Positions 10,601 through 16,278 of a stretch of 31,622 nt of DNA are shown here, one piece after another (positions within the stretch are counted from its first letter, which is position 1; each line of letters begins with the position of its first letter). The position numbers and the translations under genes were made by a program. Where the stretch lies: sequence record OM475431. One strand, given 5' to 3'. Source of the stretch: Escherichia phage 9W. The notes under the pieces were generated by a model. The model made no database searches and was not told the DNA's origin. It saw only the letters and a program-made list of their open reading frames with translations.

Positions 10601-11509
10601 ATGCCGATTATCGACCTGAACCAGCTACCCGCACCGGATGTGGTCGAGGAGCTGGACTTTGAAACCATTCTTGCCGAACGCAAGGCGACACTGATTTCCC
10701 TTTACCCGGAAGACCAGCAGGAGGCGGTCGCCCGTACCCTGACGCTGGAATCCGAGCCTCTCGTCAAACTGCTGGAGGAAAATGCTTATCGTGAGCTTAT
10801 CTGGCGTCAGCGTGTGAATGAGGCTGCACGGGCGGTGATGCTGGCCTGTGCAGCCGGTAATGACCTTGATGTGATTGGTGCCAATTACAACACCACGCGC
10901 CTGACTATCACCCCGGCAGATGATTCGACCATTCCGCCGACACCGGCAGTGATGGAGTCTGACACCGATTATCGTCTGCGTATTCAGCAGGCGTTTGAGG
11001 GCTTAAGCGTCGCCGGGTCGGTGGGTGCCTATCAGTATCATGGTCGCAGTGCCGACGGGCGTGTCGCGGATATCTCTGTCACCAGTCCGTCTCCGGCCTG
11101 CGTCACCATCTCTGTGCTGTCACGTGAAAATAACGGTGTTGCATCCGAAGACCTGCTGGCCGTGGTGCGTAACGCCCTTAATGGTGAGGACGTCAGGCCG
11201 GTGGCCGACCGCGTGACCGTGCAGTCTGCCGCCATCGTTGAATACCAGATAAACGCCACGCTTTACCTTTACCCTGGTCCCGAAAGCGAACCCATCCGCG
11301 CTGCCGCCGTGAAAAAACTGGAAGCGTATATCACGGCACAGCACCGGCTGGGGCGCGACATCCGTCTGTCTGCCATTTATGCCGCTTTGCATGTGGAAGG
11401 TGTGCAGCGTGTCGAACTGGCAGCACCACTGGCCGACATCGTGCTCAACAGTACGCAGGCGTCTTTCTGTACCGAATACCGCGTCGTGACCGGAGGCTCG
11501 GATGAGTGA
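10601..11509 (+). CDS. J: Baseplate protein J
   Basis: 302 aa, P2 gpJ length and position. Confidence 0.88.
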   Translation: MPIIDLNQLPAPDVVEELDFETILAERKATLISLYPEDQQEAVARTLTLESEPLVKLLEENAYRELIWRQRVNEAARAVMLACAAGNDLDVIGANYNTTRLTITPADDSTIPPTPAVMESDTDYRLRIQQAFEGLSVAGSVGAYQYHGRSADGRVADISVTSPSPACVTISVLSRENNGVASEDLLAVVRNALNGEDVRPVADRVTVQSAAIVEYQINATLYLYPGPESEPIRAAAVKKLEAYITAQHRLGRDIRLSAIYAALHVEGVQRVELAAPLADIVLNSTQASFCTEYRVVTGGSDE

Positions 11510-12032
11510 TTCGCGACTGCTGCCGACCGGCTCATCACCGCTTGAGGTCGCCGCCGCAAAAGCCTGTGCGGAAATTGAAAAAACGCCGGTCAGTATTCGT
11601 GAGCTGTGGAACCCGGACACCTGTCCGGCAAATCTGCTGCCGTGGCTGGCGTGGGCGTTTTCGGTCGACAGGTGGGATGAAAAGTGGCCGGAAGCGACAA
11701 AACGCGCCGTTATCCGCGATGCCTATTTCATCCACTGTCATAAAGGCACTATAGGTGCAATCCGGCGTGTGGTGGAGCCGCTCGGCTATCTCATCAACGT
11801 GACGGAGTGGTGGGAAACCAGTGACCCGCCGGGCACCTTCCGGCTTGATATTGGTGTACTGGAAAGTGGCATCACAGAGGCAATGTATCAGGAAATGGAA
11901 CGGCTGATTGCTGATGCCAAACCTGCAAGTCGCCACCTTATTGGCCTGAACATTACCCGGGACATTCCCGGCTACCTGTTCGCCGGTTGTGTGGCTTACG
12001 ACGGCGATGTAATTACGGTTTACCCCGGATAA
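11502..12032 (+). CDS. I: Baseplate protein I
   Basis: 176 aa, P2 gpI length and position. Confidence 0.85.
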   Translation: MSDSRLLPTGSSPLEVAAAKACAEIEKTPVSIRELWNPDTCPANLLPWLAWAFSVDRWDEKWPEATKRAVIRDAYFIHCHKGTIGAIRRVVEPLGYLINVTEWWETSDPPGTFRLDIGVLESGITEAMYQEMERLIADAKPASRHLIGLNITRDIPGYLFAGCVAYDGDVITVYPG

Positions 12033-12042
12033 GTGAGGAATA

Positions 12043-14289
12043 ATGAGCACAAAATTCAGAACCGTTATCACCACTGCCGGTGCAGCAAAGCTGGCAGCGG
12101 CAACCGCGCCGGGAGGGCGGAAGGTCAACATTACCACGATGGCCGTCGGGGATGGCGGTGGTAAATTGCCTGTCCCGGATGCCGGACAGACCGGGCTTAT
12201 CCACGAAGTCTGGCGACATGCGCTGAACAAAATCAGCCAGGACAAACGAAACAGTAATTATATTATCGCAGAGCTGGTTATTCCGCCGGAGGTGGGCGGT
12301 TTCTGGATGCGTGAGCTTGGCCTGTACGATGATGCGGGAACGTTAATTGCCGTGGCGAACATGGCCGAAAGTTATAAGCCTGCCCTTGCCGAAGGCTCAG
12401 GGCGTTCGCAGACCTGCCGTATGGTCATCATCGTCAGCAGTGTGGCCTCAGTGGAGCTGACCATTGACACCACAACGGTGATGGCAACGCAGGATTATGT
12501 TGATGACAAAATTGCAGAACATGAACAGTCACGACGTCACCCGGACGCCTCGCTGACCGCCAAAGGTTTTACTCAGTTAAGCAGTGCGACCAACAGCACG
12601 TCTGAAACACTCGCCGCAACACCAAAAGCGGTAAAAGCAGCATATGACCTTGCTAACGGAAAATATACCGCTCAGGACGCCAGCACGGGGCGAAAAGGTC
12701 TTGTCCAGCTCAGTAGTGCCACCAACAGCACGTCTGAAACGCTCGCCGCAACACCAAAAGCGGTAAAAGCAGCATATGACCTTGCTAACGGGAAATACAC
12801 TGCACAGGATGCCACCACCGCGCGAAAAGGCCTTGTTCAGCTCAGTAGTGCCACCAACAGCGATTCTGAAACGCTGGCCGCAACGCCAAAGGCGGTTAAG
12901 ACAGCGTATGACCTTGCTAACGGGAAATACACTGCACAGGATGCCACCACAGCGCGAAAAGGTCTTGTCCAGCTAAGTAGCGCCACCAACAGTGATTCTG
13001 AAACGCTGGCCGCAACACCAAAAGCGGTGAAGTCTGCCAATGACAATGCTGAAAAACGTCTTCAGAAAGATCAGAACGGTGCGGATATTCCTGATAAAGA
13101 ACGCTTCCTGAGTAACATTAATGTTTACAGCAAAGGTGAAGTGGATAAGAAAAAGGGAATGCGAAAGTATTCGTTTGCAGCCCCTGCAAATGTCGTTGCC
13201 GGGAAGTGGTATCCCGTTATCTTTCGCCGTGCTGCCAGCCTTTCAGGAGAAATGGCATCCCGCGTCGTTATTTCCACTGGTTGTTATAACGGCGATTATG
13301 TAATGAATAACTGCGAGTTTAATGGCATGGTTATGCCCGGAGGATGGACTGATCGTGGTTCATATGCGGCAGGTTATTTCTGGACGTATCAGACCAATGA
13401 GCGTTCAATCCATTCCATTGTTACAAGCCTGAAAGATGATGATGTATGTAGTGTTTTTTATGTTGAAGCCAGAGCTTTCCCTGTGCAAATTCTTGCAGAG
13501 GAAGGGCTAACGGTTATTGTTCCGACAGAGGATTATGTCGTCGGTCAAACGACATATAAGTGGGGGGCAACTAATCCCGCTACAGAAAGCACGAACGCAC
13601 AGGCTATTCTGGATTTTAAAAATGGGCGCGGTTATTACTGCTCACATCCATTTATTTCTAACCTTTCAGGAAATGCTGCAACAGCCTCAAAACTCGAAAC
13701 ACCGAGGAAAATAGCAGGTGTTGCCTTTGATGGTTCTGGAGATATTACCCTTAATGCCAGAAATGTCGGTGCATTTGCACTTCGGCAGACAGGTAATACG
13801 GTTAATGGTGATACAGCCGTTGGATGGAATTGGGACAGTGGCGCATACAACGCTCTGATTGGGGGAGCATCTGCATTAATTCTTCACTTTAATATAAATG
13901 CTGGTAGCTGCCCGGCTGTACAGTTTCGTGTGAATTATAAAAATGGCGGTATATCTTACAGGTCAGCCCGTGATGGTTATGGTTTTGAATCTGGCTGGTC
14001 TGATTTCTATACCACAACACGAAAACCCTCAGCGGGAGATGTTGGTGCATACACCAAAGCTGAGTCAGATTCACGTTATGTGAGAGACATGCGGCTGGGC
14101 GGTGCATCTACATATAAACCAGCAAATAATGGTACTACATGGACGCATCAGGCTCCGTCAGGTTGCGTATATACCGGCATTATTGTTCAGGATACCGGCT
14201 CAAACTCTGCCGATAACATTGGTGGCGTATATTACAGACCAGTGCAGAAATACATTAACGGGACATGGTATAACGTGGCGCAGGTATAA
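12043..14289 (+). CDS. H: Tail fibre protein (conserved N-terminus, repeat shaft, divergent low-GC C-terminal tip)
   Basis: 748 aa with a GAGGAA Shine-Dalgarno; conserved tail-fibre N-terminus; four tandem 44-aa repeats; P2 gpH is 669 aa. Confidence 0.85.
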   Translation: MSTKFRTVITTAGAAKLAAATAPGGRKVNITTMAVGDGGGKLPVPDAGQTGLIHEVWRHALNKISQDKRNSNYIIAELVIPPEVGGFWMRELGLYDDAGTLIAVANMAESYKPALAEGSGRSQTCRMVIIVSSVASVELTIDTTTVMATQDYVDDKIAEHEQSRRHPDASLTAKGFTQLSSATNSTSETLAATPKAVKAAYDLANGKYTAQDASTGRKGLVQLSSATNSTSETLAATPKAVKAAYDLANGKYTAQDATTARKGLVQLSSATNSDSETLAATPKAVKTAYDLANGKYTAQDATTARKGLVQLSSATNSDSETLAATPKAVKSANDNAEKRLQKDQNGADIPDKERFLSNINVYSKGEVDKKKGMRKYSFAAPANVVAGKWYPVIFRRAASLSGEMASRVVISTGCYNGDYVMNNCEFNGMVMPGGWTDRGSYAAGYFWTYQTNERSIHSIVTSLKDDDVCSVFYVEARAFPVQILAEEGLTVIVPTEDYVVGQTTYKWGATNPATESTNAQAILDFKNGRGYYCSHPFISNLSGNAATASKLETPRKIAGVAFDGSGDITLNARNVGAFALRQTGNTVNGDTAVGWNWDSGAYNALIGGASALILHFNINAGSCPAVQFRVNYKNGGISYRSARDGYGFESGWSDFYTTTRKPSAGDVGAYTKAESDSRYVRDMRLGGASTYKPANNGTTWTHQAPSGCVYTGIIVQDTGSNSADNIGGVYYRPVQKYINGTWYNVAQV
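12565..13035 (+). repeat. Tandem 132-bp (44-codon) in-frame repeat, about 3.6 copies, inside the H shaft
   Basis: Unit Q codons at 12574, 12706, 12838, 12970 (period 132 nt); units differ at a few positions (NSTSE versus NSDSE, S/T, G/A). Confidence 0.9.
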
Positions 14290-14292
14290 TTT

Positions 14293-14820
14293 ATGCAGCA
14301 TTTAAAAAATATTACGGCGGGTAATCCAAAAACGGTTGAACAATATCAATTGACAAAGGACTTTGATGTTGTCTGGTTTTTTTCAGAAGATGGTAAGAAC
14401 TGGTACGAACAACAAAAGTATTTTGCTGATGACACGATAAAAATAGCGTACGACAAAGATAATATTATCCGCTATGTGGAAAAGGATGTGACAGCTATCA
14501 GACCGGATGGATTAAGTGTGGTTGAAGTGGCGGATATTACTGCTAATCGGCGGGCGGACATTTCAGGGAACTGGATGTTTAAGGACGGCAAAGTGATTAA
14601 ACGCATTTATACGGAAGAGGAATTACAGCAGCAGGCAGAAATTCGGAAAGCCAGACTTCTTGCAGATGCTGAATCCGTGATTTTGCCGCTGGAGCGCGCG
14701 GTCAGACTGAACATGGCAACAGATGAGGAGCGTAGCCGACTGGATGCATGGGAGCGTTACAGCGTTCTGGTCAGTCGTGTGGATCCTGCAAATCCTGAAT
14801 GGCCGGAAATGCCGCAATAA
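14293..14820 (+). CDS. G: Tail fibre assembly chaperone
   Basis: 175 aa, P2 gpG length; AT-rich N-terminal half, GC-rich conserved C-terminal half ending ...[11 protein letters not shown]. Confidence 0.85.
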
Positions 14821-14855
14821 GTTGTATGAGCTCTGGTGTGAGCTTACATATCTAT

Positions 14856-14895
14856 GGCACAGAGTAAAGACTAATCTGACAGTCCGCTCTGTGCC
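14856..14895. other. Perfect 9-bp inverted repeat (GGCACAGAG ... CTCTGTGCC, 22-nt spacer) at the junction between G and the cargo gene
   Basis: Seen in sequence; lies between the convergent 3' ends of G (+) and the 251-aa gene (-). Possible bidirectional terminator or recombination junction; no canonical U-tract. Confidence 0.4.
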
Positions 14896-15012
14896 AAAAA
14901 CGGGCAGAGTGAATGGCTAAGTCTAGCTCATTAGAAATGTTCGCTTCATGAAAATGGCTGCAGCAAGGATCTATCTCACTGCGGCCTCTTTACAATAACG
15001 AAATTTTGCGAG

Positions 15013-15768
15013 CTATTCCTTGGCCTCTTTATTTTTCTCGCCATCGCCAATGTAAAGAAGATAATCGTTTAAGGATATCCTTCCGGAGGGGCCGGTCCAT
15101 GTTATCCATCCGTTCTCACGAAGATTAAATAATGCTTCCATGAACTCATTATCGTTAAAAGAATGATCCTCTGAGAACAGAATGTTCATTTTTCTCAATA
15201 GTTCTTCCACTTTAATCTTTTCATATCGCCTTATCAGACTTAGTGCTTTACGACGCATTAAGATTGTAGGTACTGCTTGTGAACGAATGGTTTTTTGTAT
15301 TCCACTATCAAGAACTTTCTTGATCTTACTCTCTAACTCTTTGATTTTAGTTTCATTATCTCCATTGGACTTAAGCTTTTCATCAACGATGCAAATAATT
15401 TCCTGACTAATGCTGTTCTTGAGGTTGTTTATTTTTTCTTCATTGTTGAGAATCTCATCAGAGCTTCCTGCATGGGGTTTTTTCCATATGTGCTGACGCA
15501 TATCCGTTACCGTATCTCTCATCATAGAGAATGTATCTGAATATAACTTGTCAAATATTTTTTCCAGTCGTTCGACACTTGCCTGGATGTCTTTTGCTGC
15601 TTTAGTTGTCTCTTTAGAAGCCTCATTCGACATTTTATAAAAAACAAAAGAAAGCCAAATAGCCCCAATGGCGAGTACTAATGAGGCTATTGTGGCAATA
15701 AAACCTATTATTGTTATTGCTGTATCTAATGTACCTGCTGCATCTGTGACTACTGTTTCTGCTGCCAT
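15013..15768 (-). CDS. Hypothetical membrane-anchored coiled-coil protein (cargo at the P2 Z/fun position; candidate phage-exclusion or defence gene)
   Basis: 251-aa ORF antisense to the late operon; GAGGA Shine-Dalgarno 5-6 nt upstream of the ATG; N-terminal hydrophobic helix (ITIIGFIATIASLVLAIGAIWLSFVFY), then a Lys/Glu-rich predicted coiled coil; about 30% GC in a sampled 60-nt stretch versus about 60% in the late genes. Confidence 0.75.
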   Translation of the reverse strand: MAAETVVTDAAGTLDTAITIIGFIATIASLVLAIGAIWLSFVFYKMSNEASKETTKAAKDIQASVERLEKIFDKLYSDTFSMMRDTVTDMRQHIWKKPHAGSSDEILNNEEKINNLKNSISQEIICIVDEKLKSNGDNETKIKELESKIKKVLDSGIQKTIRSQAVPTILMRRKALSLIRRYEKIKVEELLRKMNILFSEDHSFNDNEFMEALFNLRENGWITWTGPSGRISLNDYLLYIGDGEKNKEAKE

Positions 15769-16278
15769 ATATCCTCAATATTTAACCATACAGGGTAGCG
15801 TGTTTTAACCGCGGGGAAGTCGGGGTGGTGACACCCTAGCCTTACCCCGATTCCAGAGTATTTATTTATCATACCATTGAAACTATTTAATTTTATCGAA
15901 AATTTTGTCAGAGCGTGACTGAAAAGTCTTCAGCACGTCAAGCATATCGTCGCCGTTCAATTAACACTGAGCCTTTTCTTAGAGGGGTGGGCTGCGCAGT
16001 TGCGAGGTTATGCCCCAGTTCCTAGTTCCTCACTACATTCTAATTAAGCCGGCCAACTAAATGTCCGCTTTTCGCTCAAAGCAGACTGTCAGATTTGATA
16101 GCGTTTGGGCTATGTAAATTGTCAGTTGGAAAATGAGTGAGTACAAATCAGGATAGGCTGGCGGATTACCCGCCTTTTCTTTGTCTGTTGTTTCATCCCC
16201 TGACCAGCCAGGTCAAATAGCGTCTCATGCTCTGCACAACAGAAAATAGTTGCACCCATTAACCACGGAGTTAAACGG

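Follow-up and report, generated by a model that had tools for sequence, protein, structure and literature searches.

The tail-fiber gene H of Escherichia phage 9W (sequence record OM475431; the whole 31,622-nt stretch that was analyzed is hereafter the window) codes for a protein of 748 aa, as against 669 aa in phage P2, and contains a run of tandem 132-bp repeats. This raises the question of what the repeats encode, how the array came to have its present form and whether it accounts for the difference in length. We consider it probable that the repeats constitute an old, inherited array of the PF03406 domain, in which whole units are occasionally gained or lost, the units convert one another, and the conserved core presumably acts as a junction between fiber modules. 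The array itself is a catalogued repeat within an already deposited and annotated gene; it is thus an already described kind of feature, and its significance beyond annotation is low.

Gene H and its genomic neighborhood

In GenBank, the P2-like coliphage P2_2H4 matches the window, whose 2247-nt H is 100% identical to the tail-fiber CDS of Peduovirus P2_2H4 (LR595869.1/NC_049385.1). The open reading frames, taken together with Pfam matches, recover the V-W-J-I-H-G late-operon order of P2, and the gene order agrees with both the P2_2H4 record and P2. Within this operon, H lies between an upstream gene with a match to Tail_P2_I and a downstream gene with a match to Caudo_TAP (Pfam), giving the order I-H-G. 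The gene, its N-terminal domain and the gene that follows it are:

12043..14289, plus strand: tail-fiber gene H, 748 aa (ORF list and identity to the annotated CDS)
12043..12495, plus strand: N-terminal baseplate-attachment domain, aa 1–151 of H (PF12571, score 197.6 bits, cut-off 23)
14293..14820, plus strand: tail-fiber assembly chaperone, the equivalent of P2 G (PF02413 Caudo_TAP, E = 6.7e-34)

Only a single chaperone gene follows H, and the annotation of the P2_2H4 record includes no invertase. Within H, no inverted-repeat pair emerged from a repeat search of positions 11500..16200; two imperfect inverted pairs (18 and 20 nt) lie between H and G. A further inverted-repeat pair, of 34 nt, flanks a cargo ORF downstream of H, which itself returned no match in PADLOC or Pfam. 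These features bear on an invertible fiber segment of the Mu G, P1 C or Min/Pin type, which would combine inverted repeats around alternative fiber C-termini with a Gin/Cin-type invertase, a reading that was left aside.

Organization of the repeat array

Tandem Repeats Finder places the array at 12583..13028 (score 682; period 132, 3.4 copies with 90% matches and no indels), a second repeat search found three in-register copies at a spacing of 132 nt, and identity at a lag of 132 nt reaches 0.887 over 12565..13032, with every other lag from 30 to 200 at or below 0.34 and a maximum lag identity of 0.357 in 2000 shuffles. Alignment of the units resolves the array into three complete units of 132 bp followed by a fourth, core-only copy of 72 bp, i.e., 3.55 units, all in frame and without indels, in which two types of core, with the motifs NSTSE and NSDSE, succeed each other in the order T,T,D,D:

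12565–12696, plus strand: repeat unit U1, aa 175–218, T-type core NSTSE (Tandem Repeats Finder and unit alignment; mean 90% identity to the first unit of other four-unit arrays)
12697–12828, plus strand: repeat unit U2, aa 219–262, T-type (mean 94% to unit 2 of other arrays)
12829–12960, plus strand: repeat unit U3, aa 263–306, D-type core NSDSE (mean 95% to unit 3 of other arrays)
12961–13032, plus strand: repeat unit U4, core only, aa 307–330, D-type (72-nt core; mean 94% to unit 4 elsewhere)
12776..12976, plus strand: nested out-of-frame ORF of 66 aa, a by-product of the repeats (internally repeated translation; no Pfam match)
12837..13046, minus strand: nested antisense ORF of 69 aa, a by-product of the repeats (sub-threshold Pfam noise only)

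U4 corresponds to the first 24 aa of the unit and ends at the motif AATPKAVK, beyond which the sequence diverges. The original prediction, made from the nucleotide sequence, had described tandem in-frame 132-bp repeats at this location, with about 3.6 copies of a 44-aa unit, and had expected them to generate spurious ORFs on both strands; the repeat search, the lag identity and the unit alignment bear out the former, the copy estimate and the quoted peptide are correct, and both nested ORFs are present without a credible match to any Pfam family. Its description of the DNA of the units as near-identical does not hold, since base identity between the full units is only 87% (U1/U2), 90% (U2/U3) and 80% (U1/U3), with 13–27 of 132 positions differing in pairwise comparisons, and synonymous divergence between units is substantial (dS 0.36–1.10 and dN/dS of about 0.1 by the Nei-Gojobori method). 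The longest identical in-register runs measure 50 bp (U1/U2) and 44 bp (U2/U3).

Affinities of the repeat unit

The array is recognized as four stretches of PF03406 (Phage_fiber_2, InterPro IPR005068; score 264.7 bits, cut-off 22; E = 1.8e-80), positioned after the PF12571 attachment domain and before the distal receptor-binding part of H. By this profile match, the units correspond to the catalogued 'phage tail fibre repeat', present here four times in tandem. The domain, also termed Pf2, was first identified in lambda stf; its structure and function were little known in 2012, and in rotary-shadowed EPclB it was taken to belong to a globular bead (PMC3368898). The 72-nt core recurs at about 79% nt identity in the tail-fiber genes of 317 phage records, including those of Stx-converting and lambda-derived phages. 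Among the papers brought up by literature searches on the Pfam name and accession, on repeats in P2-like gpH and on the copy number of tandem repeats in fibers, none describes a survey of how many units P2-like H proteins contain.

Sequence and profile searches of the PDB detect the motif only in the Mu S entries, and in the Mu cryo-EM study only the N-terminus of the motif-bearing S fiber was built (PMC11915804). A modeling study from 2021 lists PF03406 with the template 5iv5_A (PMC8078820), which we set aside as evidence on account of its poor agreement and 22% identity. An AlphaFold2 monomer model of H aa 150–396, computed from a 16-sequence alignment, was unusable (mean pLDDT 51, pTM 0.30).

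Unit number among relatives

To place the four units of the window in context, unit number was counted in the 80 IMG/VR contigs most similar to it in the N-terminal domain (98–100% aa identity), together with P2 and the window itself, the loci being located by a fuzzy internal anchor. Complete H genes in this census are distributed as follows:

1 core: 1 complete H gene
2 cores: 16 complete H genes
3 cores: 1 complete H gene
4 cores: 49 complete H genes
5 cores: 11 complete H genes

The four-unit form is the commonest (49 of the 78 complete close relatives), in a sample picked by N-terminal closeness to the window, so that these frequencies are not population estimates. In each of the 82 arrays, 66 of which are distinct at the DNA level, the cores recur at intervals of exactly 44 aa. 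Two cores are present in the named phages P2, Wphi and pro147, three in fiAA91-ss and PSP3, and four in vB_YpM_46. Representative genomes of 22 Enterobacteriaceae species contain one to four cores, with the first core at aa 190/191 in all but two genomes and the 44-aa spacing in all but two, in which the loose pattern used skipped one core; forms with five and six cores are present in the protein database. A query comprising the N-terminus and the array finds a match in 1586 of 5426 complete E. coli genomes, in 482 of which at least 80% of the query is covered at one place, and contiguous four-unit arrays at 95–98% identity occur among the complete genomes of this species.

With relatives ranging from one to six units, the four-unit array of the window is real but ordinary. 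The same range supports the earlier suggestion that copy number can vary, as do pairs of phages that share a distal domain and differ in length by exactly one or two units:

L066 (4 units) and L076 (5 units): distal part identical at 1255/1260 nt, length gap 132 nt
L010 (4 units) and L023 (5 units): distal part identical at 1261/1329 nt, length gap 132 nt
L050 (3 units) and L003 (5 units): distal part identical at 992/1008 nt, length gap 264 nt

Contribution of the repeats to the length of H

The first 251 aa of H are 95% identical to P2 H (AF063097, 669 aa), which has two cores, equivalent to one full unit and a further 24 aa, and hence not the copy number of the window. The original prediction held that the repeats probably account for the difference between 748 and 669 aa. 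This is correct insofar as the two extra units contribute 88 aa; however, the distal part also differs by −9 aa (418 aa after the array in the window, 427 aa in P2), yielding the net +79, and this part is largely non-homologous, the distal halves of the two proteins being unrelated except for about 110 C-terminal residues with 36% identity. The fit of the repeat arithmetic to the length gap is, consequently, partly coincidental. Moreover, since H proteins with four units range from 642 to 772 aa among the close relatives, the length of H is not mainly set by unit number. Nor can the array be called an expansion, as had been proposed: the direction of change is not polarized, four units are the modal number in the closest relatives, and the two units of P2 go with a different downstream module.

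Distal modules and the core as a possible junction

The region beyond the array of the window has its affinities with the fiber proteins of phage Mu:

13033..13128, plus strand: Mu-S-like connector, aa 331–362, starting SANDNAEKRLQKDQNGADIP... (alignment to Mu S)
13756..14280, plus strand: distal receptor-binding tip, aa 572–746, Mu S'-like (residues 318–486 of the Mu S/S' chimera in PDB 8ju3, E = 5.4e-59)

The similarity to Mu S extends back into the array, with H aa 288–362, a stretch that takes in the last part of U3 together with U4 and the connector, aligning to Mu S residues 99–173 (E = 6.9e-16). Across the relatives, a P2-type connector (TVMDETNKKAPLNS) is found after one or two cores and a Mu-type connector (S/A-AYDNAEKRLQKDQ) after two to five cores, and each of these two modules starts immediately after AATPKAVK. 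In 11 of the 11 arrays compared unit by unit, a Mu-type connector is preceded by a D-type core and a P2-type connector by a T- or M-type core. The start of two downstream modules after the same motif, along with the presence of the core in the 317 phage records, suggests that the conserved 24-aa core (…LSSATNS.SETLAATPKAVK) serves as a shared crossover point at which distal fiber modules are joined.

A junction of this kind also allows another origin for the array itself, which we regard as possible though rather doubtful: a P2-type H with T-type units would have recombined at the core with a Mu-S-type gene, which brought in one or more D-type units along with the connector, so that the extra units were acquired and not duplicated in place. 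The T,T,D,D order is as expected from such a fusion, as are the association of connector type with the type of the last core in the 11 arrays compared, the alignment of H aa 288–362 to Mu S, and the sharing of the core by unrelated phage groups. However, the D- and T-type units within one array are still 86–90% identical and exchange tracts, by which their origins are blurred, and the existence of arrays ordered T,T,T,D,D or T,T,D,D,D indicates that both types change in number in place. A fusion would therefore complement the inheritance of an old array with whole-unit change, which we favor, and does not exclude in-place duplication; part of the array may have come with the Mu-type module.

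Age of the array and exchange between units

The position-specific similarity of the units across phages bears directly on the age of the array. When each unit of the window is compared with 40 other distinct four-unit arrays, its mean identity to the unit at the same position is 90–95%, as against 75–90% to units at other positions, and the 72-nt cores have their best match at the same position in 76–100% of comparisons. An independent IMG/VR contig (L012) has an array identical to that of the window. With units of only 80–90% identity and dS of 0.36–1.1, the array is old and neither fresh nor hypervariable; on the reading of these substitution patterns, it is an old inherited arrangement, the peptide of which is under strong purifying selection.

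These observations leave very little room for a recent unstable expansion, under which the array would be a hypervariable, contingency-like locus with high-frequency change of copy number within the phage population. Such a locus, which near-identical DNA would imply, would be in keeping with the unlike copy numbers of close relatives, with the adjacent units of 99–100% identity within the arrays of L027, L022 and L076, which point to recent duplication or conversion, and with the identical runs of 44–50 bp between units of the window. Runs of that length are enough for occasional, but not frequent, RecA-dependent exchange in E. coli. Against it stand the divergence of the window units, the fact that their closest counterparts are the same-position units of other phages, and the identical array in independent records. 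A phase-variable contingency locus of the simple-sequence type was rejected, as the units are 132 bp long, in frame, 80–90% identical and positionally orthologous across phages; the unit length being a multiple of three, frame switching is impossible. Finally, there is next to no chance that the repeat count is an assembly artifact, with repeats collapsed or expanded, for although repeats are able to break short-read assemblies and many database homologs are 'partial' proteins that end at contig ends, the 13–27 differing positions per 132 permit unambiguous placement of reads, the identical 2247-nt gene is found in both LR595869.1 and NC_049385.1, the array recurs unchanged in L012, and four-unit arrays are present in complete E. 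coli genomes.

Returning to an old array with exchange between its units, divergence between the four-unit phages is 6.4% in the array as against 1.8% in the adjacent N-terminal 522 nt. Polymorphism is concentrated at sites at which the units differ from each other, 71% of these being polymorphic compared with 16% elsewhere. Minor alleles match the base found at the corresponding site of another unit in 74 of 91 cases (36 expected) and, at four-fold degenerate sites, in 44 of 57 (24.7 expected), a signal of gene conversion that is partly confounded because sites variable between units also vary between phages, a problem which the four-fold control reduces but does not remove. Further, there are runs of 4–11 consecutive sites in the donor state, one of which lies in U1 of the window.

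A model for the array and its implications

We propose that the array lies in the proximal part of the shaft of a trimeric, P2-type tail fiber, between the attachment domain and the Mu-like connector and tip, and that each unit probably contributes a structural module of its own to this shaft. Unit number would then shift occasionally, by whole units, via in-register unequal homologous recombination, as suggested by the pairs differing by 132 or 264 nt, and would alter the physical length of the fiber. Exchange of sequence tracts between units is seen in the polymorphism data, and gene conversion is its likely mechanism. The predicted outcome is a population of fibers with one to six units, in which four is the most frequent number among close relatives. 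A more far-reaching version, in which unit number is an adaptive setting of 'reach', e.g., to the depth of the O-antigen or capsule, synonymous divergence has been selected to curb the loss of units and the core is a dedicated crossover linker, would make the array a tuned, semi-stable device for the exchange of length and modules as opposed to a passive spacer; we deem this unlikely.

On the favored account of an inherited array with a junction core, length differences between P2-like H proteins would decompose into two separable processes, viz., the gain or loss of units and the swapping of distal modules at the core. For the engineering of P2 and tailocin fibers, the relatives offer natural, tolerated fusion points and shafts of one to six units. 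For assembly and annotation, the array is likely to break short-read contigs and to yield nested false ORFs. Were unit number indeed to tune adsorption to surface depth, it would provide a simple handle on host range.

Comparison with known fiber systems

The PF03406 repeat is shared with lambda Stf, StfR of E. coli K-12 and the collagen-like fiber proteins of EHEC prophages, in which this motif of about 42 aa likewise occurs in tail fibers, often in several copies. Unlike in those proteins, the units of the window are strictly tandem at a 44-aa spacing, directly follow the PF12571 domain and succeed one another without intervening collagen or coiled-coil segments. Mu S (PDB 5yvq, 9ki1, 8ju3) resembles the window H in having a copy of the repeat (residues 117–160) followed by the NGADIP connector, both within the aligned stretch 99–173, and the S' part of 8ju3 matches the window tip at aa 572–746; it differs in its single unit and in its other N-terminal attachment region. 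Mu swaps its tips by inversion of the G segment, whereas around H of the window there are only three short imperfect inverted repeats of 18–34 nt.

P2 gpH shares the attachment domain, the V-W-J-I-H-G order and the first core at aa 191, but has two cores in place of four, with the last core being followed by TVMDETNKKAPLNS... in P2 and SANDNAEKRLQKDQNGADIP... in the window. The gpH of Yersinia phage L-413C has been described, in a passage of PMC7460101 summarizing Garcia et al. 2008 that does not itself address the number of repeat units, as a hybrid in which a P2-like N-terminus (207 aa) and a P2-like C-terminus enclose a mosaic middle of foreign origin; going by that description, H of the window follows a like modular logic.

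Distal and central regions of the tail fibre

The distal tip of H, the P2-type tail-fibre protein of the window (748 aa; 12043..14289, plus strand), matches the S' part of the phage Mu S/S' fibre chimera (PDB 8ju3) over aa 572-746 (13756..14280; E 5.4e-59), with the last ~75 residues of the tip also matching a chain labelled 'short tail fiber' (9cuy_c). S' is the fibre expressed when Mu is in the G(-) orientation. Because the tip matches Mu S', the sequence comparison suggests that the receptor specificity of the fibre differs from that of P2. The preceding stretch of H (aa ~363-571; 13129..13755) has no match in Pfam or PDB and is matched only by PHROG families, namely the tail-fibre families phrog_454 and phrog_6578 and the unknown-function family phrog_36614.

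Related H genes in other records

The window is 31622 nt long versus 31342 nt for the GenBank record of phage P2_2H4 (LR595869.1), whose H is 100% identical, and H begins at 12043 in the former versus 11884 in the latter, i.e., 159 nt later. Given these different total sizes and the shifted H start, the window comes, as judged from the two sequences, from a copy of that phage with different boundaries. P2-type H genes are also found on contigs labelled 'Vagococcus sp. WN89Y' and 'Chryseobacterium sp. 18061' (loci L097 and L103), with N-terminal domains 74-78% identical to that of the window's H. Since the labelled taxa are non-enterobacterial, these assemblies look like cases of contamination or mislabelling.

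A variable slot downstream of the fibre genes

Two features lie downstream of H:

15013..15768, minus strand: ORF of 251 aa whose N-terminus is hydrophobic, located between the genes for fibre assembly and tail sheath
14873-14906 and 16062-16095: imperfect 34-nt inverted repeat flanking this putative cargo ORF

The arms of the repeat are 82% complementary and 1155 nt apart, and could be boundary markers of a variable slot or terminator remnants. Searches with the 251-aa ORF recovered nothing above the cut-off in Pfam and no match in PADLOC; its sole match, covering the full length, is phrog_36054, labelled 'unknown function'. The ORF is a candidate for a cargo or lysogenic-conversion gene; in P2, the slot that it occupies in the window holds the accessory gene Z/fun.
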